A DNA stretch of 51,644 nucleotides from positions 1 through 51,644 of the forward strand of contig DAIDJL010000003.1 of NCBI GenBank assembly GCA_027450205.1, in the 5' to 3' direction. The DNA is from Candidatus Parcubacteria bacterium (GTDB taxonomy: Bacteria; Patescibacteriota; Minisyncoccia; UBA6257; 2-01-FULL-56-20). Below the pieces are notes generated by a model. That model worked only from the letters and a program-made list of their open reading frames with translations, was not told where the DNA came from and ran no database searches. Of this stretch, positions 1 through 40,155 are shown one piece after another (the stretch's first letter is position 1; each line of letters starts with the position of its first letter). The position numbers were made by a program, and so were the translations under genes.

Positions 1-141
1 CATACGCAATGCCGGAAGGTTTGTTGATGGTGAGGTTGGGGAGGTAGAGGCCATAAGTGCCGTCGATGATCTGGGTACCGGTGCCGTTCATAACAAGGTT
101 TGTGGTCCCGGTCGCGGATGATGCCCAATAGGTCTCATTGG
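1..141 (+). repeat. Terminal direct repeat, copy 1 (identical to 51504..51644)
   Basis: Read by eye: bases 1..141 (catacgcaatgccggaaggtttgttgatgg...ataggtctcattgg) are base-for-base identical to the last 141 bases of the window. Confidence 0.95.
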
Positions 142-8903: not shown

Positions 8904-9545
8904 TTATATTGCTGCCAGCTCCTCATATGCTTTCTTCGGATCGGCGCTGTTGAAAATATAACTTGACGAAACGATCGTATCCGCCCCAAGCTCTTTCACG
9001 CGCCACGCCGTGAGCGGGCTCATTCCTCCATCCACTTCAATTGTAGCATTCGGGAACTCTTCCCTCAAAAAACGGATCTTATCGTCGATGAACGACAGAT
9101 AGAGCTGCCCCGCAGGTCCCGGTTGTACGGCAAGCACCTGGAATGAGTGGAAATATTTCAAATAATGCGCGATGTCTTCCGCGTCGGATTCCGGCTTGGA
9201 AGAAAGCATGACCTCCGCATGATACCGCGCGGAGACCGATATAATTTCATGCACCGACCGCGGATTCAGCGACTCCGCATGGACGATCAGCCGCCGCGCG
9301 CCCGCGGTAAGCCAGTTGTCCATATACTCCTCGGGGTGGTCGACCATCAAATGCACTTCGAGTGCGAACGGCGATTTGAGCTTCACCCACTCCAAGGGAT
9401 CCGCCCATGTCCGATGCGCCGCAAAGGATCCGTCCGTCACATCAAGGTGCAACAGATCGCCTTCGCGCAAAAAAGACTTCGCGATCTCGATCTTCGCGCG
9501 CACGCATTCAACATCGGGGCAATTGATGACGGGGATCACCTTCAT
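8904..9545 (-). CDS. rpe: Ribulose-phosphate 3-epimerase
   Basis: 213 aa; HLDVTDGSF, EVHLMVDHPE and a C-terminal EVDGG motif. Confidence 0.85.
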   Translation of the reverse strand: MKVIPVINCPDVECVRAKIEIAKSFLREGDLLHLDVTDGSFAAHRTWADPLEWVKLKSPFALEVHLMVDHPEEYMDNWLTAGARRLIVHAESLNPRSVHEIISVSARYHAEVMLSSKPESDAEDIAHYLKYFHSFQVLAVQPGPAGQLYLSFIDDKIRFLREEFPNATIEVDGGMSPLTAWRVKELGADTIVSSSYIFNSADPKKAYEELAAI

Positions 9546-9551
9546 GTGCCG

Positions 9552-11143: not shown

Positions 11144-11773
11144 TCAAACACCCGGAGAGATCGTCACCGTATCCCCCGCTTTTATGCCGTACTTGGCGAC
11201 AGTGCCGGCGTTCACTTCCAGCACTTTATCCACGTTGGCGGGCGAACGGTAGATCGGCAGCTGCCAGAGCCGGGTGCCCGGCGCGGGTGCGGGAACGTCC
11301 TGCGAAAATCCGGCCACGGTGTTGCCGCTGATCCAGATCATATCCAGCGCAAAGTTCATATCCTTCATCCAAAATGACTGCGTACCGCCCGAACCGAACA
11401 GGAAGATCATGCCATCGTGCTCACCAAGCGATGTCCGGAAAGAAAGCCCGCGCGATTGCTCAAGCGTGGTCGATGCGATCTCCACATTGAACGTGGCGCC
11501 GTCAACGGTCAATTCTTCCCCGGGAAGCATGGGGTTCTCTCCGGAATTGTCCGCAGCGCCCGCGGCACCTTCGATGGTGGATGACGAAACAGGAATGGCC
11601 GTGGGCACGGAAGTGCTTGCAGCGGCAGTCGTGGTCGCAATGGAAACATCGGCGCGCGGGAGCGGCGGATTAGGCTTGCCGAAAAAAAGATACCACCACG
11701 CGCCGAATGCGATGATGAACAGCACGAGCGCGGCGGAGAGCATGAGAATGGTCATTTTCTTATCCCGGAACAT
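11144..11773 (-). CDS. DUF192 domain protein with N-terminal membrane anchor
   Basis: 209 aa; GLSFRTSLGEHDGMIFLF...FWMKDMNFALDMIWI is typical of DUF192. Confidence 0.75.
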   Translation of the reverse strand: MFRDKKMTILMLSAALVLFIIAFGAWWYLFFGKPNPPLPRADVSIATTTAAASTSVPTAIPVSSSTIEGAAGAADNSGENPMLPGEELTVDGATFNVEIASTTLEQSRGLSFRTSLGEHDGMIFLFGSGGTQSFWMKDMNFALDMIWISGNTVAGFSQDVPAPAPGTRLWQLPIYRSPANVDKVLEVNAGTVAKYGIKAGDTVTISPGV

Positions 11774-12275
11774 TACCCTTTATATTAGCATCGCATGCAC
11801 CAAAACGCAGGCCGAATGCCACGATGCCGAAAGCTACGGCAACATTCAACGATTCTTTCTTCCCCATCATTGGTATCTCAAGAGTCTTATCCGCCGCGCG
11901 CAGAATGGACGGCGGCAACCCCTTCACCTCATTGCCCACGATGATCGCGACGCGCGTGTCGCGCGCGAGCCGTGCAGCTTCGCTGTAATACGGCACCGAA
12001 TGCCTTGATTGCTCGAGTGCAAAGACCTGATATCCTTCTTTTTTTAATTTTTTCACGACACTCCCCGTCGTCCCCGCCATTTCCCAGGCAACGTACTTTT
12101 CCGCGCCCAGCGCAACCTTGGCGAAATCCCCGCGCACTTCCCTGAAACGGTCCAGCGGCGCGGGGGTGATGCCGCACAGGAATATCTTCTCCGCGCCGGC
12201 GGCGTCGGCGGTGCGAAAAATGGAACCCACATTATGGACGCTCCGGATATCGTGCGCAATGACGGCGAGATGCAT
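11760..12275 (-). CDS. SpoU/TrmH-family RNA 2'-O-methyltransferase
   Basis: 171 aa; IRSVHNVGSIFRTADAAG, GNEVKGL, IPMMGKKESLNVAVA. Confidence 0.85.
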   Translation of the reverse strand: MHLAVIAHDIRSVHNVGSIFRTADAAGAEKIFLCGITPAPLDRFREVRGDFAKVALGAEKYVAWEMAGTTGSVVKKLKKEGYQVFALEQSRHSVPYYSEAARLARDTRVAIIVGNEVKGLPPSILRAADKTLEIPMMGKKESLNVAVAFGIVAFGLRFGACDANIKGNVPG

Positions 12276-12318
12276 TCCTCTATATTATACTTCCGCGGAC
12301 GACGCGTGAATGGCACTG

Positions 12319-14496
12319 CTAATTCGAGAAGAGCACCCCCGAATCGCCCCTTACCGCGAACTTCGCGTTCACGAGCGCCGGATTGCTGAATGTCCCGCCG
12401 GCGGTGTCCGTCGCTGTCCCGTAGAACTGTACGCTTGCACCAGTGGAAGGATTTCCCGTCGTGGCCGTAAAGACCCAGTGATAGCGATGGTCCGGATAGA
12501 GCATGAGCGACGACGACGCAAAAGAAAATGCAAGATTCCCCGCACATCCATATCCGCCAAAACCATTGTCGGCCGGCGTCACACCGAGAGAGGAAAGATT
12601 TTGTTCGTCGAACAACTGCAGGGAGCATCCGACGCTTTCCATATATCGCGCGCTCGTCTGGATGTTGGCCGTGAACAATTCTATGGACCCGAGCGTTGAG
12701 GTTGCCGGCACGGTAAAGTATTGCGATGCATATCCCATCTCGGGGCCCAAAAGATACGGAACGAATCCTGCGGGAAAGTTCCATGTGGCCGTCGCGGCGG
12801 GAGAAATGTCACCGTAATTGTCCGCGGCGCGGATGCCGACGAGGTAGGTATTCCCCGCTTCGAGCGGAATACTGCCCGGATCGGCCCAGCCGGCATCGGA
12901 AAGCGACGTCGAGGTGGACCAGTTCATCTGATAATGAAGCGGATCCGCCGGCCAGTCGGGGTCGGTGGAAGTGGACCACGAGAGGGAAAGCTGCATGCCA
13001 AGCTGGTCGAAATCCTCTTTAAGGTTCGCCAGGGCCGTAAGCATCGGCGGCGTGAGCGTTGATGTGGCAAAGATGCCGTCCATTTTTATGAACGGAAAGA
13101 ACGTGCTTGTGCTCTCCACGCGGCCGGTGCCATAGACGAAGTTGTTCCACATCACCACGCCGGCCGTCGTGCTTGCCGTGCCGGCAAGGATCACGCTGCG
13201 ATTCTGATAATCCTGATCGGTCGCAAGACGGTAATAAAAATACGGCTTGAGCGAAATGGAAAGTCCGGCGTATGTCGCCGACGCCATCACGGGCGTGAAC
13301 GGCGCATTGTCGGAAATCGGAAACTCCCGCACAAGAACCGAATAAGTTTTATCCTTGAATTCCTGGAGAGAAATCCGTGACGCAAAATAGTTCACGTCGC
13401 TTACCTTTCCTTCGAGCGTGAGCGTGTTCAGCGTACCCGAGAAACCGCTGCCGAGCTCGAACCAATTGTCGTCATACCAGCTCGGCGAAGAATTGGCGCC
13501 GTCATCCAACTGGGCAAACAAAGTGCCGGTCGCCATAGGCCCGGATCCGGATCCCGCAGGCACCGAAGATGTTGCGGCGGAAGACGGATCCGTTTCCGCT
13601 GTGCTTGTCGTACTTTCATCAGGAGGCGCCGATGATGATAGCTGTGACGACAGTGGTAGTAACAGAGGCGCTGATGATGTCACGCTGCCGCTGATCACGG
13701 CAACGCCACCGGACGGGATCGCCGAGGATGGACCGGTATTGATAGTGGAGACAATAGCGGAGGAGGCAACGAACGCAACGGTGCTCGTGCCGATCGCGAT
13801 ATCGGTCGTCGTCGCGATAGCATACGCACCCAAAACCTCTCCCGGCATGGCGGGAGGCTGAATGTCCGGCGCGGCGGGAAACGGGGCAGCCGATAGCGGT
13901 GCACTTACAACATCCGCGTCATCATTGTTGTCGGAAAGATACCACTTCCCTTCCGTCATGCCACTATTCCCGGAAATCGGCTCCGGGTCGTATGCAACGA
14001 ACGTTCCGTCGGGATCGACGGCGTCCATCGCAAAATGAAGATGGGTTCCGGGGTGCGCCGCGCACGCAAGGCCGGCGACAAGCCCGGTGTCACCGACAAG
14101 CCCGATCGTCTGTCCGCGCCGGACCGCATCGCCGCGCCGGAGAACCGTGATACTGCCGGGAACCAGGTGCGCGTACCGGCTCACGATATTCCCGCCGTGA
14201 TCAACGATCAGCTCCGTGCCATATCCGCCGTTATACCCTTCCTGGCCCAAGAACATCACCGTGCCGGACGCGGCGGCAACCACGGCCTTTCCATAAGCAT
14301 CGCAGCCGTTCTGGGTAAGATCGAGGGCATATGCATCCTTTTTTATATGCGTAGGAGCTGAATAATACCCTTGTGTAACAATAAAGCTCTGCCCTTTGGC
14401 GTACGGCAATTTGACCGTCGTTGTCGCAGCAGAAGATCGCGCGGGGATCGCGGCAAAAGCGGCGCACGCCATGATCCTCAAGGTCCATTTTTTCAT
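12319..14496 (-). CDS. Secreted M23 (LytM-type) metallopeptidase with a long Ser/Thr-rich linker and large C-terminal domain
   Basis: 725 aa; signal peptide, then an M23 core: GYGTELIVDHGGNIVSRYAHL...GQTIGLVGDTG...GTHLHFAMD. Confidence 0.85.
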   Translation of the reverse strand: MKKWTLRIMACAAFAAIPARSSAATTTVKLPYAKGQSFIVTQGYYSAPTHIKKDAYALDLTQNGCDAYGKAVVAAASGTVMFLGQEGYNGGYGTELIVDHGGNIVSRYAHLVPGSITVLRRGDAVRRGQTIGLVGDTGLVAGLACAAHPGTHLHFAMDAVDPDGTFVAYDPEPISGNSGMTEGKWYLSDNNDDADVVSAPLSAAPFPAAPDIQPPAMPGEVLGAYAIATTTDIAIGTSTVAFVASSAIVSTINTGPSSAIPSGGVAVISGSVTSSAPLLLPLSSQLSSSAPPDESTTSTAETDPSSAATSSVPAGSGSGPMATGTLFAQLDDGANSSPSWYDDNWFELGSGFSGTLNTLTLEGKVSDVNYFASRISLQEFKDKTYSVLVREFPISDNAPFTPVMASATYAGLSISLKPYFYYRLATDQDYQNRSVILAGTASTTAGVVMWNNFVYGTGRVESTSTFFPFIKMDGIFATSTLTPPMLTALANLKEDFDQLGMQLSLSWSTSTDPDWPADPLHYQMNWSTSTSLSDAGWADPGSIPLEAGNTYLVGIRAADNYGDISPAATATWNFPAGFVPYLLGPEMGYASQYFTVPATSTLGSIELFTANIQTSARYMESVGCSLQLFDEQNLSSLGVTPADNGFGGYGCAGNLAFSFASSSLMLYPDHRYHWVFTATTGNPSTGASVQFYGTATDTAGGTFSNPALVNAKFAVRGDSGVLFSN

Positions 14497-14507
14497 CGCA
14501 ATAATAG

Positions 14508-15131
14508 TTAGATGGTGAATCCCGGCAAAAACGTTTGGAGCATATCATCGCACCGCGCGGAACCGTCAGCGGCCGCTCCATTACTGGCGGCGATGACGGA
14601 CGGCGCGACCTCATACGCATGCTGATCGCTGAAAATATAGACGAGCGTCGTCGGAATATCGTCGATCGTTCCGACCCACTTCACGCCGGTACCTCCATCT
14701 ACCGAAACAGCTTCGCTTGATCGTTCGGCGACGGAAAGGCTCGGATCGGCGCCGATGCGATGCGATATCCAATCCGCCGTGTCCGCGCCCGGCGAGAACG
14801 GGAACGCCGACACTTCGATCTTGCACGCGGCGGCGGAGGATGACGCGGCGGGATGCAGCGCGATCGCATCGGCGCCGGTATGTTCTACGCTCCAGCTCGC
14901 GGGAATGCGCAATGAATATCCGTCATTCGGATCCGAAAATATTTGCGTCGGAACAGAGGACGGCACGGCCGAGGTTTCTTCCGGTGCGATATCGGCATCG
15001 GACGCAGCGCTCATACCCGTGCTCACATCGCCGCCGTAGCCAAAATGACCGACTGCCAAAAATGTTCCGCCCGCCGCCATTGCGGCAATAAGCATCCACG
15101 AATAGAGGGCTCCTCGCGATGGTTTTTTCAT
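14508..15131 (-). CDS. Hypothetical membrane-anchored extracytoplasmic protein
   Basis: 207 aa with an N-terminal TM. The soluble domain starting DGYSLRIPASWSVEH resembles that of ORF 6815..7453 (YGFSIRYPQNWKIF). Confidence 0.6.
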   Translation of the reverse strand: MKKPSRGALYSWMLIAAMAAGGTFLAVGHFGYGGDVSTGMSAASDADIAPEETSAVPSSVPTQIFSDPNDGYSLRIPASWSVEHTGADAIALHPAASSSAAACKIEVSAFPFSPGADTADWISHRIGADPSLSVAERSSEAVSVDGGTGVKWVGTIDDIPTTLVYIFSDQHAYEVAPSVIAASNGAAADGSARCDDMLQTFLPGFTI

Positions 15132-15167
15132 ACGCTTATATTTTATTTTTTTGATATCTTTTATTTT

Positions 15168-16985
15168 TTATTGAAGTGTGAAGTCGCTGGCGTTGTTGTC
15201 CGTGTCCGCCATCGCACCGTTCAACACCGCACGCGCGAGCGCCTGGCCAGCGACGGGGTCCGTGGGATACGGCGGGCCTTCGCCGTATTGATCGCTCCCC
15301 GTTCCCCAGGCGACCGCATCAACGACATCTCCCGCCGGATCCATCAGCGCAACACTGTTATCCGCCGCGAGCGTTTCCGCGCTCGACGCATTCGCGCCGA
15401 TCGTTTCCGAAAATCCGCCGGCGGAATTCGCCCATACGAACATCTGTCCGGCGGCGATCGTGCTCCCCGCCGGGAACGTCTTCAGCGAATAATCGGCTCC
15501 CGTCTGGGATTTCTTGCGCAGTCTCCATCCGCTCATGTCGATCGCCGTGCCGGTAGGATCGTAAAGCTTTACAAAATCATTACTTGAGGACGCCCCGGCG
15601 ATCTGTATCGCGGCAATGAGGATATGGCCCGCACCGGAGCCGGGATCCCCTCCCGTGGCGATACCCTGGCCGGTTCCGTCACCCGTCGAGGACGATGACG
15701 TCGCAACGCCCGTGGATATTGGGGAAATATCGGTGTTTGTATCGGTGGCAGGGGCGGCAGCGTCCTTTGCAGCACCGGAGGCCGGCGGCGAGAGCGTTGA
15801 AACGAATTGGGCGGTGATCAAAGTGTCCGTAGCGACCGTGAACGCGCACGTTGCCTGGCTATAACACAGCCCCGACCATCCGATGAACGCGGCATTCGGG
15901 CCCGCCGCCGGCGTGAGCGTGATGCGCGTCCCCGACGCGAAACTCCCCGCACAGCCCGTGCCGCATACCAAGCCCGCGGGATCGCTCGTGATCGTTGCGC
16001 CGGCCGCGCTCCCTCCAAGCGAGACGCTCACCGTGAACCGCGGCGGCGGCGGTCCTGCGGAATTTTTTCCGCCGGGAGTTCCTCCGGGCAAAGCGCTCGT
16101 GTGCCACCCGATCCCGTCCGCGTCGCGCTCGAGCGTTGCCTTCGTCGCATTATTTCCGCCCGGCCATCCGTTCGACGCATCAAGATAATCGGAAACGACA
16201 CACTGCGGATCCATGAACGCGAGCGTCGCACCCGCGTTCGCAAGATCGCCGGAATATATTTTTATCGGCGCGGCGAAACCGGCAGCCATGACGGGAGCGC
16301 TCCCGCGCGCGAGGACCATAAATCCTCCGGACGCGATCGTATCGCCGGCGGAAAAAGATATTTTTATCTTCCCTGCCGCGTCAAGCAGTTCCCACCCCGA
16401 GAGATCGACATCGTCTGCGGAATCATTCTTCATCTCCATCCACTCGGCACTGGACGATGACGGCGATCCCATCCACGCAACTTCGTTCAAAATTATTTTT
16501 CCCGCAGGCGATGACGCGCCACCGGGGAATAAACACGTCCGCGCAGGCGCGGACGACGGAGAGGGATCTTCCGTTGTTTTGCCGCTTAATGGATCATTCG
16601 CATCGTTGTTTGCATTTTGTGCGGACGGCGAAGCAATATCCTGATCCTGCAGCACGGCCGTCGGCGCCGGAACGACCGATGCGAGATCCCCGCTTTTCTT
16701 CTGCGCCGCTTTTTGCGAAGATCTTTTTGCGGACGGTGCGAATACTGCCGCCGCGGGCGGCGCATCGGTGCCATCGGTGCCGGACGGCGCCACATCAGGC
16801 GCGGAAAGGGTCGATGAGACATCATCCAGCGGCAGAATATCCGTGTCGGAAGCCGGGCTCATCTCCGCAGAATCTGCCCCAAACACCGCATGCATCGCAC
16901 CGGGATCGAAATAATATGCGACACTCGCACCAAGCGCGATCACGACAGCAAAAATACCAATGGTCATATAGTTTTTTCTGTTCAT
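15168..16985 (-). CDS. Lamin-tail-domain (LTD) surface protein with two LTDs and an InlB-B-repeat-like module
   Basis: 605 aa. LTD 1: IILNEVAWMGS...EWMEMKNDSADDVDLSGWEL. LTD 2: ILIAAIQIAG...DFVKLYDPTGTAIDMSGWRL. Middle module: GATITSDPAGLVCGTGC...FIGWSG. Confidence 0.8.
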   Translation of the reverse strand: MNRKNYMTIGIFAVVIALGASVAYYFDPGAMHAVFGADSAEMSPASDTDILPLDDVSSTLSAPDVAPSGTDGTDAPPAAAVFAPSAKRSSQKAAQKKSGDLASVVPAPTAVLQDQDIASPSAQNANNDANDPLSGKTTEDPSPSSAPARTCLFPGGASSPAGKIILNEVAWMGSPSSSSAEWMEMKNDSADDVDLSGWELLDAAGKIKISFSAGDTIASGGFMVLARGSAPVMAAGFAAPIKIYSGDLANAGATLAFMDPQCVVSDYLDASNGWPGGNNATKATLERDADGIGWHTSALPGGTPGGKNSAGPPPPRFTVSVSLGGSAAGATITSDPAGLVCGTGCAGSFASGTRITLTPAAGPNAAFIGWSGLCYSQATCAFTVATDTLITAQFVSTLSPPASGAAKDAAAPATDTNTDISPISTGVATSSSSTGDGTGQGIATGGDPGSGAGHILIAAIQIAGASSSNDFVKLYDPTGTAIDMSGWRLRKKSQTGADYSLKTFPAGSTIAAGQMFVWANSAGGFSETIGANASSAETLAADNSVALMDPAGDVVDAVAWGTGSDQYGEGPPYPTDPVAGQALARAVLNGAMADTDNNASDFTLQ

Positions 16986-22390: not shown

Positions 22391-22472
22391 AAATCCCGCT
22401 GGACAATTCACTGCTTGCGCTCCTATACTGTTCACAGCAATGACAGTTCACAAAAATCGAAGGGAGGGCCGC

Positions 22473-23126
22473 ATGGCTTGGAAACTCGTAGCGTTTGATT
22501 GGGACGGCACACTGGTTGATACAATGCAGATTGCGTATCAGGCCATGCGAACCGTTTTCGGACATTACCGATTAGAACCGCCGTCCAAGGATGTCTTTTT
22601 GGAGAACATCACGAGCGGTGGCATGCTCGCGTTCTATCACGAGCGAGGGGTTCCCCGTAGCGCAACCCGACAAGACCTCAACGCCATCTGGCAAAGGCAC
22701 TTCAATGATCCGAAGCATCACAGCCAACTTCTCTTGAGAGAAGGCGCACGAGAGGCATTGGCTGCCTGCCGGGACATGGGAGCCAAGGTTTCCATCGTGA
22801 GTGGATCGACCCACGGCATCATAACGACCGGGATTGAGAGGTTTGGCATTTCTGATTTTATTGACCACGTCGAAGCTGATGCTTCCGGCAAGGTTGATGA
22901 ACTTCGACGCGTCATTTCCCATTTCTCCGTCGATCCCAACGAGATGGTGTACGTCGATGATACTTACGAAGGGTTGGCTGCAGCGAAAGAAGTCGGCATT
23001 AGCGCCATCGGAATCCTTGGAGGGTTCAGTCCACGGGAGCGTCTCCTTGAAGCGAATCCCGACCGCTTGATTGCGAGCTTAAACGATCTGCTTCCGTTGT
23101 TTGGGATAAACGGAATGGGGGCATAA
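22473..23126 (+). CDS. HAD-superfamily hydrolase (phosphoglycolate-phosphatase-like)
   Basis: DWDGTLVD motif I, SGS motif II, VYVDDTYEG motif IV. An AGGGAGGG RBS lies 5 nt before the ATG at 22473; the track ORF starts at 22440. Confidence 0.85.
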   Translation: MAWKLVAFDWDGTLVDTMQIAYQAMRTVFGHYRLEPPSKDVFLENITSGGMLAFYHERGVPRSATRQDLNAIWQRHFNDPKHHSQLLLREGAREALAACRDMGAKVSIVSGSTHGIITTGIERFGISDFIDHVEADASGKVDELRRVISHFSVDPNEMVYVDDTYEGLAAAKEVGISAIGILGGFSPRERLLEANPDRLIASLNDLLPLFGINGMGA

Positions 23127-28961: not shown

Positions 28962-29534
28962 TTATAGCATTCCCATGAGATATACCGTTGTGAATATGAA
29001 TATCCAGACGATGTCCAGAAAATGCCAGAACAGGGCGAAGCGGGTGAGTTTTGAAGTGACGCCGGGCGTGAGACCGCGAAGCTTCAGCTGGACGATCGCG
29101 ACAATGATCCAAAGGAGCCCCACGGCGATGTGCAGCCCGTGCGTACCGACGAGCGTAAAGAACGATGAAAGGAACGCGCTCCTCTGCCAGCTCGCGCCGA
29201 TCGCGATGAATCGTGAGAATTCGCCGAGCTCCAGTGCAAGGAACGTCGCGCCAAGCGCAAAGGTGGCGATGAGCCATGCAATTGTCTGATTGACCTTCCC
29301 CTTTCGCGCCGCGAGCGTCATAAGCCCGCAGGTAAAGCTGGAGGTAAGCAGCACGAGCGTGTTCACAAGTGCCGTCGGCAGACTGAAAAGATCATTCGAT
29401 GTCGGACCGCCGAACGTGTTCGCCCGCAACACCATATATACCGCAAAGAGCACACCGAAGATGATAATGTCGGTCATCAGATAGACCCAGAATCCGAATG
29501 CGTGCGTATCGTTTTTTTCCATTATTTTTTCCAT
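28962..29534 (-). CDS. cyoC: Cytochrome o ubiquinol oxidase subunit III
   Basis: 190 aa; FGFWVYLMTDIIIF..., WHFLDIVWIFIFT. Confidence 0.9.
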   Translation of the reverse strand: MEKIMEKNDTHAFGFWVYLMTDIIIFGVLFAVYMVLRANTFGGPTSNDLFSLPTALVNTLVLLTSSFTCGLMTLAARKGKVNQTIAWLIATFALGATFLALELGEFSRFIAIGASWQRSAFLSSFFTLVGTHGLHIAVGLLWIIVAIVQLKLRGLTPGVTSKLTRFALFWHFLDIVWIFIFTTVYLMGML

Positions 29535-31525
29535 GCTAATTTTTCCAATCGCTCAACCTCGGCCGCCGGCAATACGTATTCGGTATCCTCATCGAACGAA
29601 CGGATGATCACGCACGCGATCGCGCCGAAAATCCCCAGTAACGCAAGCCAGATAATATGCCACACCAGCCCGAACGCGGCAAGGAACACGAACCCCGAAA
29701 GATAGATCGCCATGCCGGTGTTCTTTGAAAGAGTGATGTCATCATATCCGTCCGGCGGCAAAATCCCGGGGCGCTCGCCGCGCTTTTTCATTTCCCAGAA
29801 CGCATCGCGGCCATCCACCACCGGCGTCTTCGCAAAGTTATAGAACGGCACCGGCGACGCGGTCGCCCACTCAAGCGTATGCCCGTCCCACGGGTCACCC
29901 GTCGTATCCGTATTCTGCCGGCGATCCCTGATGCTTACGATGACCTGCCAGGCCTGGGTAATAACCGCGGCGGCGATGATGCACACGCCGGTCGCCGCAA
30001 TGATGAAGAACGGCTGCCAGCCGGTGGAGGCGGCGTAATGATCAAGCCGGCGCGTGGCGCCAAGGAATCCCAATATATACAGCGGCACGAACGACATGAA
30101 AAAACCGACGATCCAGAGCCAGAACGCGCGGCGGCCGATCTTTTCATTCAGCGTGAACCCGAACACTTTCGGGAACCAATACGTGATGCCCGCAAAGATG
30201 CCGAAAAGCGCGGCGCTCACGATCATCGTGTGGAAATGCGCGACGAGAAAGAGGCTGTTGTGCAATTCAAAATCCGCGCCCGGGATGGAAAGCAATACCC
30301 CCGCCATGCCGCCGAAGGTGAACAAGCTTACAAATCCCATAAAATACATCATCGGCGTCGTGAACCGTATCCGCCCGCGGAACATCGTGGCGATCCAGTT
30401 GAAGATCTGCGCCGCGGTGGGAATCGCGATAATCCCCGTCATGATGCCGAAAAACGCATCCACGTCCGCGCCGGCGCCCATCGTAAAGAAATGGTGCAGC
30501 CACACAAGGAACGAAAGCAGGGTGATTGCTATCGCTGAGCACACCATTGAAACGTAGCCGAATATTTTCTTGCCGGAAAAGGTTGCGACGATCTCGGAGA
30601 ATATGCCGAACGCGGGAATAACGAGGATATATACCTCAGGATGGCCCCACATCCAGATAAGGTTCACATATAACATCGGGTTGCCGCCAAAGCCGGAGGT
30701 AAAGAAATGCATGCCAAAGAACCGGTCGAACCACAGGAGCAAGGTCGTTATGGTAAGCACCGGAAACGATGCGACGACAAGCACCATGCTGCAGAGCGAC
30801 GTCCAGGTGAAAAGCGGCATCATCATGAGCTTCATCCCTTTTACGCGCATCTTGAGGATGGTCACGATAAAATTGATGCCGCCAAGCAAGCTACCCAGCC
30901 CGGAAATTTGCAGGCTCCACACCCAATAGTCCACGCCGGTGCCGGGGCTGAACTGGATCTCGGAAAGCGGCGGTAACGACAGCCAGCCGGATGCCGCGAA
31001 CTCGCCGCCGACCACGAAGAACATATTGATGAACACCGCGCCCGCCACATAGAGCCAGAACCCGAGCGAATTCAGGAACGGGAACGCGAGGTCGCGGGCG
31101 CCGATCTGCAGCGGCACGATCAGGTTCATGATGCCGAAGAAAAATCCCATAGTGACGAAGAAGACCATGATATCGCCGTGCGCGGTGAATATCTGCTGGA
31201 AATGGCTCGCATCAAGATAGCCGTGCGCGGCACCGAGGTAGCCCGGCGCATTACCGGCGGAGATTGCCTGCTGTATCCAGATCATGATTGCGTCCAGCCC
31301 CCCGCGAAACAGCATAAGCGAAGCCATCACGATGTACATGATCCCGATCTTCTTTGGGTCGGTTGACGTGAGCCACTCCTTCCAAAGCCATGTCCACCGC
31401 TTGAAATAAGTAATGACCGCCGCGACAATGATCCCGCCCACTATGATCGCACCCGTCCCGCCAATGGTGAACCATTGGTGAGGAAGGTCGCTCCATGTAA
31501 GATCTCCAAGAAAAAAGTGTTCCAT
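29522..31525 (-). CDS. cyoB: Cytochrome o ubiquinol oxidase subunit I (heme-copper oxidase)
   Basis: 667 aa; GHPEVYILVIPAFG, HHFFTMG, VAHFHTMIV. Confidence 0.95.
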   Translation of the reverse strand: MEHFFLGDLTWSDLPHQWFTIGGTGAIIVGGIIVAAVITYFKRWTWLWKEWLTSTDPKKIGIMYIVMASLMLFRGGLDAIMIWIQQAISAGNAPGYLGAAHGYLDASHFQQIFTAHGDIMVFFVTMGFFFGIMNLIVPLQIGARDLAFPFLNSLGFWLYVAGAVFINMFFVVGGEFAASGWLSLPPLSEIQFSPGTGVDYWVWSLQISGLGSLLGGINFIVTILKMRVKGMKLMMMPLFTWTSLCSMVLVVASFPVLTITTLLLWFDRFFGMHFFTSGFGGNPMLYVNLIWMWGHPEVYILVIPAFGIFSEIVATFSGKKIFGYVSMVCSAIAITLLSFLVWLHHFFTMGAGADVDAFFGIMTGIIAIPTAAQIFNWIATMFRGRIRFTTPMMYFMGFVSLFTFGGMAGVLLSIPGADFELHNSLFLVAHFHTMIVSAALFGIFAGITYWFPKVFGFTLNEKIGRRAFWLWIVGFFMSFVPLYILGFLGATRRLDHYAASTGWQPFFIIAATGVCIIAAAVITQAWQVIVSIRDRRQNTDTTGDPWDGHTLEWATASPVPFYNFAKTPVVDGRDAFWEMKKRGERPGILPPDGYDDITLSKNTGMAIYLSGFVFLAAFGLVWHIIWLALLGIFGAIACVIIRSFDEDTEYVLPAAEVERLEKLAWKK

Positions 31526-36911: not shown

Positions 36912-37784
36912 TTATTTTTTAATACAAATATAATTTCCTTTTGTAACGATAAAACCCTCTTTTTCCAGCCCGGCAGCGATCTTTTCCAATCTTTTCCGTG
37001 GAACGGCAAATGTTATCAAAAGATCACTAAACGTTGCCCTGCGGCCTTTTTGCGAGAGCACCGTACGCAACATTCGTCCGCGTAACTGACGATCGGACCC
37101 GGTGAATGCAGCCTGTTTCGTGTAATGAGCACTGCGGCGATTGGGATTCGCCTCCTTCTTTGCTGCCGCACCCATGACAGGCAGCGCCGCTCCATAATCC
37201 ATAAGCGCCCAATACCATTCTCTCGCATTTTTGCGATCAACGCTACTCCCGATATAACGTTCCAATTCGGCATCCGTTACCCGGCGCCGCTTCGCAAAGA
37301 AAAAATGAATGAAAACGCGGCGAATGTTCGTCTCAATGAACACCTCCGGCACATTGAATGCAAATGCCATGATCGATCCCGATGTCCCCTTCCCGATGCC
37401 GGGCAACGACTCAAGCGCCGCCCGATCACACGGCAGTCGGCCGCCATATTTTTCCATGATGGTCTCCGCCGCGCGCTTCAGGAACAACGCGCGCCGGTTA
37501 TAACCGAGACCCTGCCACGCCGCAAGCACATCGCCCGTCCGAGCATGCGCGAGGGAGCGGAAGTCCGGGAACCTTTTGATGAACTTTTCATAATAGCCAC
37601 CGACGCGCGAAACCTGCGTCTGCTGAAGCATGATCTCGGAAACGAATATGGCGTAGGGGTCGCGCGTGCGCCGCCACGGGAGCGTCTTCCGCCCCGCACG
37701 GCGGTAATGCGTCCAGATGGTCCTTTTGAAAGCGGTGGCTGGCGTGATCCGGGACATTAAATTCATATTAACCGCGATTTGCAC
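36912..37784 (-). CDS. HhH-GPD DNA glycosylase, MutY-like but lacking the 4Fe-4S cluster loop; winged-helix-like C-terminus
   Basis: 290 aa; WRRTRDPYAIFVSEIMLQQTQV, LPGIGKGTSGSIMAFAF. The whole protein has only 2 Cys. The tail is a wHTH-like GFIVTKG rather than a NUDIX-like domain. Confidence 0.75.
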   Translation of the reverse strand: MQIAVNMNLMSRITPATAFKRTIWTHYRRAGRKTLPWRRTRDPYAIFVSEIMLQQTQVSRVGGYYEKFIKRFPDFRSLAHARTGDVLAAWQGLGYNRRALFLKRAAETIMEKYGGRLPCDRAALESLPGIGKGTSGSIMAFAFNVPEVFIETNIRRVFIHFFFAKRRRVTDAELERYIGSSVDRKNAREWYWALMDYGAALPVMGAAAKKEANPNRRSAHYTKQAAFTGSDRQLRGRMLRTVLSQKGRRATFSDLLITFAVPRKRLEKIAAGLEKEGFIVTKGNYICIKK

Positions 37785-37808
37785 TTTCTGAAAAGGTTAT
37801 GGTATAAT
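37779..37808 (+). promoter_or_regulatory. Sigma70-like promoter TTGCAC-N18-(TG)GTATAAT for the RRM gene
   Basis: Read directly. It gives a 5' UTR of about 115 nt containing a tandem 9-mer atgttgggc (37859..37867 and 37871..37879). Confidence 0.5.
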
Positions 37809-37930
37809 GATTGCGATGTAAGTGTTCTTAGTAAGTTTCCCTTAGCCGCACTATCATGATGTTGGGCATAATGTTGGGCGGTGCAGAAGCAGAGGAGAAG
37901 CAGGTCGCCTTACACATCAATAGCAATTGA

Positions 37931-38239
37931 ATGGCTACAAAATTATACGTTGGAGGTTTACCGTACTCGACGACCCAGGATGAGCTCCAGACAGCGTTCG
38001 CCAAGGCGGGCGCAGTTGTGTCCACGAGCATCATCATGGACAAGATGACCGGCCGCTCACGCGGATTCGGCTTCGTTGAAATGGGTTCCGATGACGATGC
38101 GCAGAAAGCGATCGAAATGTGGAACGGCCAAGATTTCGATGGGCGCAAGCTCACCGTGAACGAGGCCAAGCCTCTCGAGGCTCGCCCTCCGCGCCGCGAA
38201 GGCAACTTCGGTGGTGGCGGTGGACGCGACTGGCAGTAA
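37931..38239 (+). CDS. RRM-type RNA-binding protein with Gly-rich tail
   Basis: 102 aa; RNP-2 LYVGGL, RNP-1 RGFGFVEM, C-terminal GGGGG. Confidence 0.9.
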   Translation: MATKLYVGGLPYSTTQDELQTAFAKAGAVVSTSIIMDKMTGRSRGFGFVEMGSDDDAQKAIEMWNGQDFDGRKLTVNEAKPLEARPPRREGNFGGGGGRDWQ

Positions 38240-38262
38240 ATCGTCGGTTCATTAACCTCAAA

Positions 38263-38286
38263 ATACCCCTTTCGGGGTATTTTTGT
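38263..38286 (+). terminator. Rho-independent terminator after the RRM gene
   Basis: atacccc-tttc-ggggtat hairpin followed by ttttgttt. Confidence 0.75.
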
Positions 38287-38336
38287 TTGAACTATTTTTT
38301 TGAGATAAGGGTCAGAATAAGCTGAGCCTTATATAA

Positions 38337-38720
38337 ATGCAACACGTACCCCCCCCGACACCTCAGATTTCCATCATCCAGCATCTCGTCAGTGCGTACA
38401 AGATCTGGCATGAGTTCCTGCCGCATGTGCAGGGGGATGCGCGGTACACGCTCGGCATAAAAATAGACAATCTCCTCATCGAGAGCGCCGATATGATGTA
38501 TAGCGCGAACTACGCGAGCCAAGGCAAGAAATTGCCCTATCTTAAGCAGGCCGCCCGTCGGCTCGACCTCGCCAAGTTCTTTCTTGAGGTGTTTTGGGAA
38601 ATCAAGGGATTGGACGGGGACAAATACGCCGCGCTCTCGGAACGGCTTTTCGAGATCGGCAAGATGCTCGGCGGATGGATTCGCCAGACCGCCTCAAAAG
38701 AAACTCCCGCCTCGAAATGA
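38337..38720 (+). CDS. avd: Four-helix-bundle protein of the 23S-rRNA-IVS/Avd family (DGR accessory variability determinant candidate)
   Basis: 127 aa and basic. Pattern Y..W.EFLP...RYTLG.KIDNLL...A..L..AKFFLEV...K......Y..LSERLFEIGKMLGGWIRQ is typical of this family as I recall it. Its stop lies 17 nt from the TR. Confidence 0.7.
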   Translation: MQHVPPPTPQISIIQHLVSAYKIWHEFLPHVQGDARYTLGIKIDNLLIESADMMYSANYASQGKKLPYLKQAARRLDLAKFFLEVFWEIKGLDGDKYAALSERLFEIGKMLGGWIRQTASKETPASK

Positions 38721-38727
38721 GACGGGA
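38692..38727 (-). terminator. Rho-independent terminator of the TR transcript (hairpin spans the avd stop codon)
   Basis: On the minus strand, ctcccg(t)ctc-atttc-gag(g)cgggag is followed by tttcttttga. The plus strand has no T run after it. Confidence 0.55.
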
Positions 38728-38736
38728 GAACGATGA

Positions 38737-38862
38737 GATTTGCGAGCGACGCGGCCGGGTTGTTGGAGTTCCAGTCGTTGTCGAGCCAGTTGTAGTTCCA
38801 GTTCCACCTGTCGCCGTTCCAGTACAGGTACTCGACATACAGGTTGCCGTTCGCGTTGCGGA
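38737..38862 (-). repeat. DGR template repeat (TR)
   Basis: 126-nt ungapped alignment to 39263..39388. There are 20 mismatches, 17 of them at minus-strand adenines of this copy. 34 of its 126 bases are adenines. The in-frame reading FRNANGNLYVEYLYWNGDRWNWNYNWLDNDWNSNNPAASLAN has 12 Asn codons (11 AAC, 1 AAT). Confidence 0.8.
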
Positions 38863-39125
38863 ATCGTGCGCCGTGCCATCCGTGCCACCGCCCTTCGATT
38901 ACTCTCGGGGTTGAATCGTATCCGGGATCTCCCCTGCTTGGGTAATCCACCAGCACCGCGCACCAAGTATCCTTCGTTTTTATTCGGTTGAAAGAACAAC
39001 GCTGGCAGAAAGCGTACCCGCTGCCATTCTGCGTCCAGTGATACCAGAATGCGGCCGCCCGAAACCCGCTGGCTGCATGCCAGCCAACATAGCCTCGGAC
39101 TTGTTTTGAGCCTTATTCCACAGAC

Positions 39126-39134
39126 ATTCTACCA
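39126..39134 (-). promoter_or_regulatory. Extended -10 element (TGGTAGAAT on the minus strand) driving the TR RNA
   Basis: Same TGGTAnAAT pattern as at 21205, 26359 and 37800. It lies just downstream of the target-gene terminator. Confidence 0.45.
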
Positions 39135-39149
39135 CGCGCAGCTTGATGA

Positions 39150-39190
39150 GAAAAAGAAAGCCCGCGCAAGAACTGAAGTTCGTGCGCGGG
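39150..39190 (-). terminator. Rho-independent terminator of the DGR target gene
   Basis: On the minus strand, cccgcgcacgaac-ttca-gttcttgcgcggg (12 bp, 1 mismatch) is followed by ctttctttttc. Confidence 0.75.
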
Positions 39191-39259
39191 GCAGAAAGAA
39201 ATACGAAGAGCTAAGGGGAAGAGGATCAAAAAAAGTCCAACCGCCCCATGTTCCAAGGA

Positions 39260-39928
39260 CTAACTTGCGAGCAACGCGGCCGGGTAGCGGGAGTTCCGGT
39301 CGTAGTCGAGCCAGCTGAAGTTCCAGAGCCACCTGATGCCGCTCCAGCACAGGTACTCGACATACAGGCGGCCGCGCGCGCTGCGGAAGGTGGTACCCCA
39401 GAAATAGGTGTACCCGGACCTCCACTCATCAGGAATGAGCTGCGGGTTGGCAAACAAGGCATCCATAATGCAGGCGTTCAGCACCTGCACGTCCTTCAGT
39501 TCCTTGCGGAGCTTGTGGCCTTGGATCACCTTGCCGTTCTTCTGGTTTGGCGAGAGGTATCGGACGACTTCCTTGCCGTTCGCGTAGAGCTTGCCGTCCT
39601 CGCGCTTTTCGAGCGTGATTTTGCCCATCTTGCGATGCTCGGTCCCTTCGCCCGTCAGGTAGAGACCCGATGGGATGTTGGGGTTAAGGTCGCAGTCCAC
39701 GACAATGGACATCGGGAGTGGAGCGGGTTGCGGTTGTGTCACGAAAGCGGTTTGAGATTCCTGAACCGGAACGATTTTCGCGTTTCCGAGAAGTACTTCG
39801 CGGATGCCGCCAAGCTGATCGCCAGCGGCAAGAGCGCTTACCAATTCGTGCGAATATCCGTTGCGAGCAAGTGCAAACTCGATCATTTGAATCTCGCCTG
39901 CGCTGCTGAAAGTAAACTTGTCAGCCAT
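39260..39928 (-). CDS. DGR variable (target) protein, 222 aa, with the VR forming its C-terminal 42 codons
   Basis: AAGGAG RBS 8 nt before the ATG. No signal peptide is evident. The C-terminus FRSARGRLYVEYLCWSGIRWLWNFSWLDYDRNSRYPAALLAS corresponds to the TR reading with Asn positions replaced. Confidence 0.8.
   Translation of the reverse strand: MADKFTFSSAGEIQMIEFALARNGYSHELVSALAAGDQLGGIREVLLGNAKIVPVQESQTAFVTQPQPAPLPMSIVVDCDLNPNIPSGLYLTGEGTEHRKMGKITLEKREDGKLYANGKEVVRYLSPNQKNGKVIQGHKLRKELKDVQVLNACIMDALFANPQLIPDEWRSGYTYFWGTTFRSARGRLYVEYLCWSGIRWLWNFSWLDYDRNSRYPAALLAS
39263..39388 (-). repeat. DGR variable repeat (VR)
   Basis: See the TR entry. This copy carries G, C or T at 17 positions where the TR has A. 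It ends at the stop codon of the target gene. Confidence 0.8.
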
Positions 39929-39970: not shown

Positions 39971-39999
39971 ATATTCTGCCGCTTGGTTGCAGCTTTCAA
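39971..39999 (-). promoter_or_regulatory. Candidate promoter of the DGR target gene (TTGAAA-N17-GAATAT on the minus strand)
   Basis: Read directly. The -35/spacer overlaps one arm of an 11-bp inverted repeat (39986..39996 / 40023..40033). Confidence 0.4.
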
Positions 40000-40155
40000 A
40001 TCATCGTATCGGCGACGAGCTAAAAGCTGCAACGAAACAACAAATCCTTGGAATATTTCTTATAAAAGAGCTGCTAATTACAGGGCTTAGTATACCACTA
40101 TATATACAATGTTGTCAATAGCGACGAAAACTCGCACTTCCTATAGAATTATCAT

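Follow-up and report, generated by a model that had tools for sequence, protein, structure and literature searches.

A diversity-generating retroelement without its reverse transcriptase on a Patescibacteria chromosome, and the structured RNA of its template repeat

Can two repeats that differ mainly at adenines be assigned to a diversity-generating retroelement (DGR) when no reverse transcriptase (RT) accompanies them, and if so, is such an element still at work? DGRs are systems that rewrite the tip of one protein via error-prone reverse transcription. The question was raised by a locus in a 51.6-kb stretch of DNA, which was analysed as a whole and is called the window in the following, and in which a first-pass annotation had recognised the hallmark of DGR mutagenic homing. 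The features of the locus are collected in Table 1, and related loci are given L numbers.

Table 1. Coordinates of the features of the DGR locus in the window
Feature	Position	Strand	Remarks
RT deletion scar	38299..38336		~40 nt between RRM-gene terminator and avd start codon
avd, 127 aa, bAvd-like	38337..38720	+	convergent with TR; ORF intact, in frame
C8 homopolymer	38349..38356	+	5' end of avd; longest G/C run in window
U-run	38694..38703	-	follows the 3' hairpin
3' hairpin	38704..38728	-	right after TR; terminator scan
Long-range duplex, 3' strand TCTCATCGTT	38729..38738	-	partner strand AACGAAGGA at 38970..38978, within the 5' domain
Template repeat (TR)	38738..38863	-	126 nt, 34 adenines
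Structured 5' domain	38864..39119	-	hairpins P1 and P2; conserved AAAACGAAGGATACTTGG junction; P3 three-way domain
Extended -10 box TGgTAGAAT	39126..39134	-	presumed TR RNA promoter
Conserved region 3' of VR	39148..39262	-	kept in relatives, target-only loci included
T-run	39148..39159	-	directly after the inverted repeat
GC-rich inverted repeat	39160..39192	-	~70 nt past stop codon
CTTGG-type motifs	39195..39262	-	downstream of VR
Target gene, 222 aa	39260..39928	-	variable N-terminal module, conserved central domain, C-terminal VR
Variable repeat (VR)	39263..39388	-	last 42 codons of target; ungapped alignment to TR
Target promoter-like site	40089..40118	-	TTGACA, 18-nt spacer, TATACT, TG before second hexamer

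The repeat pair and its target gene

The repeat pair proposed in the first-pass annotation is real. Its template repeat (TR) had been placed one base off, at 38737..38862, and with these coordinates the ungapped alignment to the variable repeat (VR) breaks, giving 101 mismatches; a repeat search yielded a true offset of 525 nt in place of the implied 526 nt. With the corrected TR, pairwise alignment reproduced all of the earlier counts: 126 nt without gaps and 20 mismatches, which fall on 17 of the 34 TR adenines as against 3 of the 92 non-A positions. This recount by TR base had been set beforehand as a test, and the adenine bias persists (Fisher exact p = 3.6e-9). From TR to VR, the A-sites changed to G (8), T (5) or C (4), and the three non-A changes were G>A, T>C and C>T. 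The TR adenines lie at codon positions 1 or 2 in 33 of 34 cases (AAC codons), and all 17 A-changes are found at these two positions. Both translations quoted earlier were right, the VR ending at the stop codon of the target ORF.

Near the 3' end of the repeat, an invariant CCCGGCCGCG precedes a final 12 nt in which 2 positions differ, and beyond these there is no homology. IMH/IMH*-type differences had been proposed for this end, and candidates for them are indeed present, with the correction that the non-A difference reported at 38747/39273, which does lie 3' of the invariant element, has its TR position at 38748. In some RT-bearing relatives (L012), the same 3' stretch is identical between TR and VR.

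The pair belongs to a wider family. Exact matches to a 30-nt TR core were found in 47 Patescibacteria species genomes, only one of which carries two such TRs, and the window TR is 97% identical to those of the sister loci L052 and L054, both with RT. The same A-bias, with 0-2 non-A differences, recurs in at least 10 related loci carrying an RT. The element is a real DGR on a Patescibacteria chromosome. Furthermore, a private substitution of the window TR (T at position 26) is also present in the window VR, indicating that homing did take place in this lineage. The window VR differs from its own TR at 3 non-A positions and from four related TRs at 4-15 (a fifth, that of L012, was out of register and was left out). 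Thus, its own TR fits best, and the sister TRs were rejected as its last donor.

In the case of the target gene, all of the 98 homologues come from Patescibacteria and none (0/98) has a Pfam domain; the target protein cluster has a single member, and the assembly index holds no record of the exact window Avd and target proteins. Variable columns in the family alignment coincide with the AAC codons of the TR. Outside the VR, the lineage-specific ratio of nonsynonymous to synonymous changes (N:S) is 9:20, so that this part of the protein is under purifying selection in the window lineage.

Two AlphaFold models were made, and the target domain was modelled with a pLDDT of 95.1. Foldseek of the model against the PDB gave no match with E < 0.1, and nothing significant was found for the target in BFVD (Foldseek), PDB sequences (profile search) or Pfam. 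This agrees with the earlier remark that the fold could not be assigned to the usual FGE-sulfatase/DUF1566 target classes. A C-type-lectin fold, for which HMM and structure prediction had been proposed as a check, appears in weak matches only: the plausible ones are the C-type lectins BDCA2, MCL, EMS16 and rhodocetin, with TM 0.33-0.49 and a probability of at most 0.57; by E-value they rank below two sliding-clamp chains, whose probability is < 0.1; and Mtd and TvpA are absent among the best 50 Foldseek PDB matches listed. The predicted fold thus bears a sub-threshold resemblance to C-type lectins, and no class was assigned.

Regarding the flanks, the promoter-like site matches the consensus at 11 of 12 positions and lies ~160 nt upstream of the start codon, where it probably acts as the target-gene promoter. 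The conserved region 3' of the VR may be a terminator and/or a cruciform-type target-recognition element, the latter role by analogy with the Bordetella phage DGR; the inverted repeat also resembles the terminator of the target, and its part in the DGR is putative. A gene with a similar N-terminus at the end of L010 was considered as a second DGR and rejected, as only the N-terminal module is common and there is no VR, TR or RT.

The missing reverse transcriptase and the avd gene

No RT was found in the 51.6-kb window by YxDD motif scan, Pfam or tblastn, and an RT elsewhere in the window was rejected on these grounds. The scan for YxDD gave three stretches that are free of stop codons and 150 aa or longer, none of them RT-like: one is FtsA (Pfam), and the other two (8907..9551 and 22392..23123), judged by tblastn, gave no match to the RTs of relatives. 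RVT_1 was found in none of the 20 ORFs scanned with Pfam, picked by length or closeness to the locus. With seven clade RTs as tblastn queries the best E was 0.05, and no RT remnant was seen in the window.

The closest relatives L052, L053 and L054 all have an RT. L053 shows the order HhH-GPD, RRM, terminator, RT, avd, TR, target, RmuC, which is that of the window minus the RT segment, at 80-87% nucleotide identity. Window positions 37756..38298 align to L053 1307..1855 and 38330..39734 to L053 2992..4378, and the counterpart of the scar is ~1.13 kb holding the RT gene (335 aa, ORF 1997..3004, minus strand, RVT_1). On the minus strand, homology breaks at the RT ATG and just past the terminator of the neighbouring gene, with ~25 nt of unrelated sequence between the two breaks. 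This comparison shows that the RT was removed by a ~1.1-kb deletion, reaching from its start codon to the neighbour's terminator. On the evidence of L053 synteny, the RT is absent from the window because it was deleted, making the locus an RT-deleted derivative and an incomplete DGR member. The hallmark of mutagenic homing is therefore supported in the sense that it documents past homing, and it does not necessarily imply present activity.

Relatives that share the TR, Avd and target family with the window carry a DGR-type RT beside avd, with RVT_1 at E ~1e-24 and the motifs LGNLTSQ and YADD. All 72 informative metagenome loci, and 32 of 36 informative species genomes, have an RT next to avd or the TR; the same fractions (72/72 metagenome loci, 32/36 genome loci) hold for the head-to-head arrangement of avd and RT, and DGR RTs adjoin avd homologues in more than 100 related loci.

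The 127-aa protein had been assigned to the Avd family. Its match to bAvd (PF22296) has an E of 8e-8, and its 33.2 bits lie under the curated gathering cut-off of 40; homologues found by phmmer, with E down to 1e-52, adjoin an RT in relatives, and its N-terminus aligns with theirs. The gene does end 17 nt from the TR as had been stated, on the opposite strand and converging on it. Its lineage-specific N:S is 10:4 in the window, compared with 16:40 for three sisters that have an RT (Fisher p = 0.005), and pairwise dN/dS is 0.10-0.15 for the window versus 0.05-0.08. Altogether, avd shows signs of relaxed selection in the window lineage.

A simple-sequence repeat adjoins avd. In 66 distinct related loci, a run of C6-C30 or a (CA)n repeat is found at the same spot between avd and RT, with lengths that vary by lineage, the window having C8 and three sisters C11. 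Only 21 of the 66 loci have an in-frame start codon upstream of the tract, and among the loci in hand there was no near-identical pair with differing tract lengths.

The template RNA gene and its relation to known systems

A -10-like box is found in the compared relatives at a site equivalent to that of the window's extended -10 box, 7-10 nt before the conserved 5' end of the RNA. The window box, which is presumed to be the promoter of the TR RNA, was missed by a consensus scanner because it has no good -35.

The structured domain of ~255 nt lies 5' of the TR, and its 3' strand stops 3 nt before it. RNAalifold on this domain gave 52 pairs, and compensatory changes are seen in 42 of these. In the full-length alignment, 93.4% of cells were paired versus 42-46% with the partners slid, and none of 500 shuffled alignments reached that pairing; over the whole cassette RNA, such changes occur at 53 of 69 base pairs. 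The long-range duplex brackets P3 and the TR with 7 pairs, 4 of them with a compensatory change (C-G in the window and L012, U-A in most others). The 3' hairpin is likewise kept with covariation among relatives, and on the opposite strand its 3' half, together with the U-run, makes up the last avd codons (KETPASK*). Hairpin and U-run together (38694..38728) look terminator-like and are also a candidate Avd-binding stem-loop.

At gathering score, Rfam 15 gave no match in the window. Between 38200 and 39400, with E up to 10, there were five matches (E 0.27-5.6), none of them an RT-associated motif (RT-1..19); two of the five lie inside the TR-RNA unit, both far under their gathering scores. In the species genomes, an exact DNA pattern taken from the RNA domain matched the L006 genome only. 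A 139-aa ORF over the TR (38537..38956, minus strand) was rejected as a gene and taken as a non-coding artefact of the AAC-rich frame: it has no Pfam match, and its upstream part is the covarying RNA.

The window RNA is well preserved. It has no lineage-specific broken pairs and 4 lineage-specific substitutions in 396 nt, its rate relative to synonymous divergence equals that of the RT-bearing sisters, and the TR retains all AAC codons.

In a complete cassette of the clade, the target gene ends in the VR, and a presumed promoter ~130 nt further on would give a discrete non-coding RNA made up of the ~255-nt 5' domain, the 126-nt TR, the back-pairing segment and the terminal hairpin with its U-run; avd, on the other strand, converges on this RNA, and the RT starts head-to-head at the avd start codon. 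This anatomy is directly seen, and the mechanism is modelled on the Bordetella phage paradigm. Once the RNA is bound by RT-Avd, its TR would be copied to cDNA with misincorporation opposite adenines, and the cDNA would replace the VR, with the 3' boundary presumably set by the GC-rich CCCGGCCGCG element and by the sequences that separate VR from TR.

Architecture B3 of CPR/Patescibacteria DGRs is TR-(avd)-RT (Wu et al. 2018, PMC5758913), and DGR clade 2 comprises CPR/Patescibacteria DGRs (Roux et al. 2021, PMC8144416). The window shares with the B3 elements the order and orientation of target, TR and reverse-strand avd, and with CPR DGRs the Patescibacteria chromosome as host, a TR of AAC codons and a target without recognisable domain or membrane anchor; it differs in that the RT on the TR strand is missing through the deletion. 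The locus is one more DGR of a clade known as abundant in CPR bacteria, so that the finding as first given is ordinary, and the convergent avd, being standard CPR layout, is not a new feature. No description of the ~255-nt covarying RNA 5' of the TR, of the long-range duplex linking it to the 3' flank of the TR or of the avd-RT simple repeat was found in the CPR DGR literature examined.

With the DGR of Bordetella phage BPP-1 (mtd-avd-TR-brt), the locus has in common the adenine-specific transfer from TR to VR, the C-terminal VR, an Avd-family accessory protein, a GC-rich element near the repeat 3' end with TR/VR differences beyond it, and a GC-rich inverted repeat 3' of the VR. A stem-loop after the TR and a duplex joining the TR flanks are found in both (Handa et al., bioRxiv 10.1101/2023.10.23.563531), and the duplex 38729..38738/38970..38978 may be analogous to the 'cPRT Stop' duplex of that report. 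Unlike in BPP-1, the window avd lies on the opposite strand, downstream of the TR, there is no RT, and the large structured RNA is 5' of the TR, whereas that of BPP-1 is the 140-nt Sp region 3' of it. The window RNA appears to end ~45 nt past the TR, at the terminator-like hairpin, and the Rfam motif of the BPP-1 Sp region, RT-10 (Weinberg 2017), has no match in the window.

Present state of the cassette

Relatives of the window have lost more of the cassette. L032 has lost the RT and the 5' part of avd, and its TR and VR differ at 25 A-sites and at 0 of 86 non-A positions. L177 has lost RT and avd, and L152 and L157 in addition the 3' end of the TR. L006/L007 retain a 68-aa RT fragment, located beyond a 4-kb insertion, together with an avd pseudogene and a TR that has lost its 3' end. 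L001, L050 and L009 have the target only, the RNA gene being reduced to stubs with differing cut points. In the species genomes, RT-less TR loci make up 4 of 36, the window being additional, and half of the 4 have a truncated TR. What look like the later stages of erosion, from complete cassette to target-only locus, are thus all seen in relatives.

There is a likeness to remote and degenerate DGRs here: the family has many target-only loci, and a TR on one contig can explain a VR on another. On different contigs of one genome, the TR of L012 accounts for the VR of L011, with 15 A and 2 non-A differences. Likewise, the TR of L027 accounts for the VR of L031, the differences being 19 A and 2 non-A. 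At the level of TR and VR comparison, these two pairs prove that the clade acts on remote targets in trans. Unlike in remote-target DGRs, what is left in the window is a template RNA gene with avd and not a mere VR. The window is part of the gain-and-loss dynamics of these elements.

We consider it somewhat probable (about 0.55) that the cassette is a recently disabled DGR at the first stage of erosion, with its VR frozen in a target protein that is still functional; by itself, the cassette would be unable to diversify the VR. What remains has no visible breakage, with avd ORF, TR AAC codons and RNA pairs intact. Neutral drift of avd amounting to ~8 extra amino-acid changes predicts ~9 extra changes in the RNA, and these are not seen; as the counts for both are small, this speaks against a relic only suggestively. 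Non-A mismatches were rejected as an inactivation clock, since they number 1-2 in RT-bearing sisters and 0-1 in clearly dead cassettes and do not discriminate.

A different explanation of the intact RNA is that the cassette is non-autonomous yet active, the RT of a second DGR elsewhere, with or without its own Avd, using the TR RNA in trans and still diversifying the VR. The local avd would then be redundant or adapting to the foreign RT. The 51.6 kb are the only visible part of the genome, which leaves room for such an RT; none is visible within the window, and the rarity of genomes with two TRs (1/47) argues against it. With a -10 box of its own and a terminator-like hairpin, the TR RNA looks like a separate transcription unit, and co-transcription of TR and RT is not a requirement (Wu et al. 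2018, PMC5758913). Conservation of the RNA and TR equals that in the RT-bearing sisters while the excess of amino-acid change is confined to avd, which fits a template that is still needed next to a local Avd that is dispensable or adapting. Action in trans is seen in the L012/L011 and L027/L031 pairs, but these concern remote VRs and not remote TRs. L032 keeps its purely A-site pattern despite having lost the RT and part of avd; this pattern survives in clearly dead cassettes too, so that it is no proof of current activity. Finally, the RT-less TR loci are a minority, half of them truncated, as expected from decay rather than from a stable trans-dependent design. On balance, we see continued use in trans as possible, though rather unlikely.

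Two further explanations were weighed against the same data. Metagenome assemblers can collapse structural variants or choose one of several, and the closest relatives all have an RT, so one may ask whether the main population still has an RT at this site, between RRM gene and avd, and the window represents either a minority variant with the deletion or an artefact of assembly. The junction, however, is surrounded by unique sequence in a contig of 51.6 kb, both flanks are colinear with L053, the sharp homology breaks with ~25 nt of unrelated sequence resemble a real deletion scar, and the amino-acid excess in avd is a property of the lineage that a chimeric join would not yield. This renders the explanation very improbable. 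That the repeats are diverged paralogous segments or gene-conversion partners, with the A-bias a compositional accident, has the lack of an RT in the window as its sole supporting point. Against it stand the strength of the bias, its recurrence beside RTs in related loci, and the setting of the A-rich copy, which is non-coding and lies between a covarying structured RNA and Avd; a non-retroelement origin is effectively refuted.

A bolder, joint proposal is that the TR-RNA gene is a self-contained module usable in trans, a working 'template-only' DGR satellite, that RT/Avd binding and priming in Patescibacteria DGRs have the 5' domain and not a 3' spacer as their scaffold, and that the poly-C/(CA)n tract is a slipped-strand ON/OFF switch of hypermutation. 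Taken as a whole, we regard this as speculative and doubtful.

For the family, the graded series of losses offers a concrete picture of how a DGR dies and where 'remote targets' come from, and loci such as that of the window are overlooked by DGR callers anchored on the RT. The template RNA of the clade, with its large covarying 5' domain and TR-bracketing duplex, is permuted relative to the Bordetella paradigm and is not in Rfam 15. A conserved simple-sequence repeat exactly between avd and RT raises the idea of phase-variable hypermutation, and the pairing of a conserved RNA with a drifting avd provides a way to ask whether the template may outlive its enzyme by borrowing one in trans.

Repeat pair and cassette layout

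Regarding the repeat pair, all counts of the first-pass annotation were exact, and the position of the template repeat (TR) had to be corrected: as placed there (38737..38862), it shows 101 mismatches to the variable repeat (VR). A repeat search of the window gave a spacing of 525 nt instead of 526, and the two repeats then align over 126 nt without gaps and with 20 differences. The recount reproduced the adenine enrichment, as 17 of the 34 TR adenines differ vs 3 of the 92 other positions (Fisher p = 3.6e-9), and every A-change affects codon position 1 or 2. As had also been proposed, the VR constitutes the final 42 codons of the 222-aa target ORF. The interpretation as a diversity-generating retroelement (DGR) holds, and it is virtually certain that the element is a DGR of a known clade.

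Related loci from other Patescibacteria genomes and metagenome contigs are denoted here by L-numbers, and the closest of them with a reverse transcriptase (RT), L052, L053 and L054, are referred to as sisters. In comparison with these, a T at TR position 26 is unique to the window and is mirrored in its VR; therefore, homing took place after the split from the sisters. Non-A differences between TR and VR number 3 in the window, 1-2 in the sisters and 0-1 in certainly dead cassettes, and the three of the window say little about its state. Two of these three VR variants, A at 39337 (repeat position 51) and T at 39273 (position 115), are bases of the sister TRs L054 and L053. The last donor of the VR could have been a slightly different TR, or the shared bases could be a coincidence.

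The cassette is surrounded by ordinary chromosomal genes (HhH-GPD glycosylase, RRM protein, RmuC, FtsZ, FtsA, HisRS, ribonucleotide reductase and COX1). Of these, the gene for a haem-copper oxidase subunit I (COX1, 29522..31525, E = 9e-136) belongs to the respiratory oxidases, which are uncommon in Patescibacteria; the window otherwise resembles a Patescibacteria chromosome with ~55% GC. The 127-aa gene had been assigned to the Avd family, with which its Pfam bAvd match agrees (E = 8e-8, below the curated cut-off). In relatives, the gene order is target, RNA, TR, reverse-strand avd and then the RT, head-to-head from the avd start codon. This is the same layout as architecture B3, ‘TR-(avd)-RT’, which makes up 90% of the CPR set in Wu et al. 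2018 (PMC5758913). According to Roux et al. 2021 (PMC8144416), Patescibacteria DGRs form clade 2, and their targets are typically without recognisable domains. Named relatives of the target belong to Patescibacteria in every case.

Features of the window cassette and of related loci (window coordinates unless a locus is named)
Feature	Coordinates	Strand	Remarks
Promoter-like site, strong	40118..40089	minus	upstream of target
Target gene	39260..39928	minus	222-aa ORF, 3' end is the VR
VR	39263..39388	minus	ungapped alignment to TR
CTTGG-type motif stretch	39195..39262	minus	~65 nt, directly 3' of VR
GC-rich inverted repeat and T-run	39192..39148	minus	after CTTGG-type motifs
Extended -10 box	39134..39126	minus	between T-run and RNA 5' domain
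Non-coding sequence	39119..38864	minus	~255 nt, upstream of TR
TR	38738..38863	minus	ungapped alignment to VR
Hairpin and U-run	38728..38694	minus	10 nt beyond TR
avd	38337..38720	plus	127 aa, convergent with TR; Pfam bAvd match
C8 tract	38349..38356		between avd body and position of RT start codon; longest G/C run in window
RT of L053	L053 1997..3004		335 aa; RVT_1, E = 1.5e-24
Target-only remnants	L001 10660..10830; L050 1495..1700; L009 2335..2530
Target N-terminal module on unrelated C-terminus	L051 2743..3399; P0095

Two further observations concern the flanks of the target. Each VR stop codon compared (window, L014, L019, L021, L027, L065, L066, L091, L114 and L123) is followed within ~60 nt by several CTTGG, CTTTGG or CTTAGG-like motifs, ~8-10 nt apart, which precede the GC hairpin, are kept even between loci with differing targets and may serve in target recognition or protein binding. 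An imperfect inverted repeat (39983..40006 / 40013..40036) lies in the target 5' UTR (39974..40036), which may be a regulatory leader; 39974..40006 is 97% identical to L054 despite differing target N-termini.

Loss of the reverse transcriptase and state of the cassette

In the window, a YxDD motif occurs in three stop-free stretches with a length of 150 aa or more, none of them RT-like (one is FtsA). RVT_1 was absent among the 20 window ORFs scanned with Pfam, picked by length or closeness to the locus, and tblastn of the window with seven same-clade RTs gave a best E of 0.05. The window and the 6.2-kb metagenome contig of the sister L053 are colinear, with 80-87% nucleotide identity, and the order in L053 is HhH-GPD, RRM gene, terminator, RT, avd, TR, RNA, target, RmuC. 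Here, ~40 nt of the window (38299..38336) replace ~1856..2991 of L053, and the minus-strand homology stops exactly at the RT ATG. The RT adjoins avd in all 72 metagenome loci with sequence at that spot, and among 36 informative species genomes with the TR core of the window, 32 have it after the TR. We estimate a probability of about 0.9 that the RT of this cassette was deleted.

The contig L132 (1..1272) is more distant and encodes an identical RRM protein; its RRM gene is directly followed by a RmuC homologue (32% identity to window RmuC) without any DGR, which represents this neighbourhood as an ‘empty site’. As L053 carries the full DGR, the window lacks the RT and L132 lacks the DGR, the site is therefore seen in three states. 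Among the 72 loci, L097 (5832..6023) and L122 (3789..4139) show only partial RT matches beside avd, with several kb available, and may be further RT truncations.

Regarding its present state, the cassette could be a recently frozen relic or could still be served by an RT in trans. The TR RNA retains the same pairs as in the RT-bearing sisters, with no more substitutions in the window lineage than in theirs (window-specific ones are 3 in the 232-nt 5' domain, 1 in the 126-nt TR and 0 in the 38-nt hairpin). The avd gene is intact and aligns with relatives end to end, and the target minus VR shows normal purifying selection (9:20 non-synonymous to synonymous changes). Elsewhere, the VR of L011 is explained by the TR of L012, which lies on a different contig of that genome (15 A and 2 non-A differences), and that of L031 likewise by the TR of L027 (19 A and 2 non-A); therefore, the clade acts on remote targets. 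For avd, lineage-specific non-synonymous to synonymous changes were 10:4 in the window vs 16:40 in the three sisters (p = 0.005), and pairwise dN/dS is about twofold higher for the window. We lean, with reserve, towards the frozen relic, and supply of an RT in trans appears rather unlikely.

The RT-less loci form an erosion series. RT alone is lost in the window, RT and the first third of avd in L032 (where a transporter gene comes next), RT and avd in L177, and RT, avd and the TR 3' end in L152 and L157. L006/L007 shows a 4-kb insertion, a 68-aa RT fragment (15405..15608, with a VWA-like gene beyond), an avd pseudogene and a deleted TR 3' end. The ~4-kb block (11600..15700; MerR/HTH_17 protein, AAA_5 ATPase and unannotated genes) splits the decayed avd from the RT fragment; insertion of this block, perhaps a defence or mobile island, may have killed the DGR. 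What remains at the target-only loci L001, L050 and L009 is the post-VR region, terminator, -10 box and first 21-55 nt of the RNA; as these loci break at different points, they represent independent truncations of full cassettes.

Structure of the template RNA

Between loci with targets of only ~35-70% identity, the region from target terminator to TR is conserved. RNAalifold on 13 loci predicted 52 pairs, and 42 of these show compensatory changes. In a full-length alignment of 12 loci, a 69-pair structure had 93.4% of cells paired vs 42-46% when pairing partners were slid by 1-3 columns, and both-side changes in 53 of the 69 pairs vs 14-22 in these controls; none of 500 shuffles reached the observed values. 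The template RNA is a structured, self-contained unit. It begins with two hairpins, P1 and P2, followed by a conserved single-stranded AAUGAAGAUACUUGG junction and by P3, a long helix around two small hairpins whose loops take insertions. The junction pairs with the 8-10 nt directly 3' of the TR in a 7-pair long-range duplex, so that P3 and TR lie inside one closed loop, and a terminal hairpin with U-run is the last element. Such an RNA would bind RT-Avd and prime cDNA synthesis.

For Bordetella phage, Handa et al. (bioRxiv 10.1101/2023.10.23.563531) described a stem-loop that binds Avd immediately 3' of the TR, together with a ‘cPRT Stop’ duplex between upstream and downstream sequences, both predicted in many DGRs; upstream of the TR, their analysis was limited to 40 nt. 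No Rfam 15 family matches the TR RNA of the window, and no mention of the large 5' domain was found in the part of the DGR literature covered.

The 3' hairpin with U-run and the last seven avd codons (38700..38720) use the same nucleotides on opposite strands: as reverse complement, the conserved C-terminal codons of Avd (KETPASK in the window, KQNSP in most relatives) make up the hairpin 3' half and U-run. Because of this sharing, it may be the RNA that dictates the conserved Avd C-terminus, or the reverse.

Target family, repeat tract and significance

In the target family (98 proteins), the N-terminal module is variable and is followed by a conserved domain of ~110 residues and then by the VR; TR AAC codons coincide with variable alignment columns. 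The C-terminal 155 residues have a confidently predicted fold (pLDDT 95.1); no structural neighbour of the model was significant, the plausible matches being C-type lectins below usual thresholds. The family is modular. In other Patescibacteria proteins, the N-terminal module MxDKFTFxSAGEIQxxEFALAR (39793..39928) is fused to a C-terminal domain unrelated to that of the target, and in sister loci such as L053 the VR domain is the same and the N-terminus differs.

A tract at the same spot as the C8 tract is present in 66 distinct related loci (including L012, L019, L023, L029, L036 and L052-L131), as C6-C12 (one C30) or (CA)5-18. In only 21 of the 66 do the 45 nt upstream contain an in-frame start codon. 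Tract length differs between close relatives, being C8 in the window and C11 in the three closest sisters, whose ATG is one base out of frame at the C11 tract; the RT start codon lies ~20 nt past this tract on the other strand. Judged from its sequence, this tract bears hallmarks of slipped-strand switching, by which the DGR may be turned ON and OFF; no paper tying DGRs to phase variation came up in a literature search.

As an RT-deleted DGR of a known clade, the element is not novel in kind, and the parts worth follow-up are the structured 5' RNA domain, the erosion series and the repeat tract.
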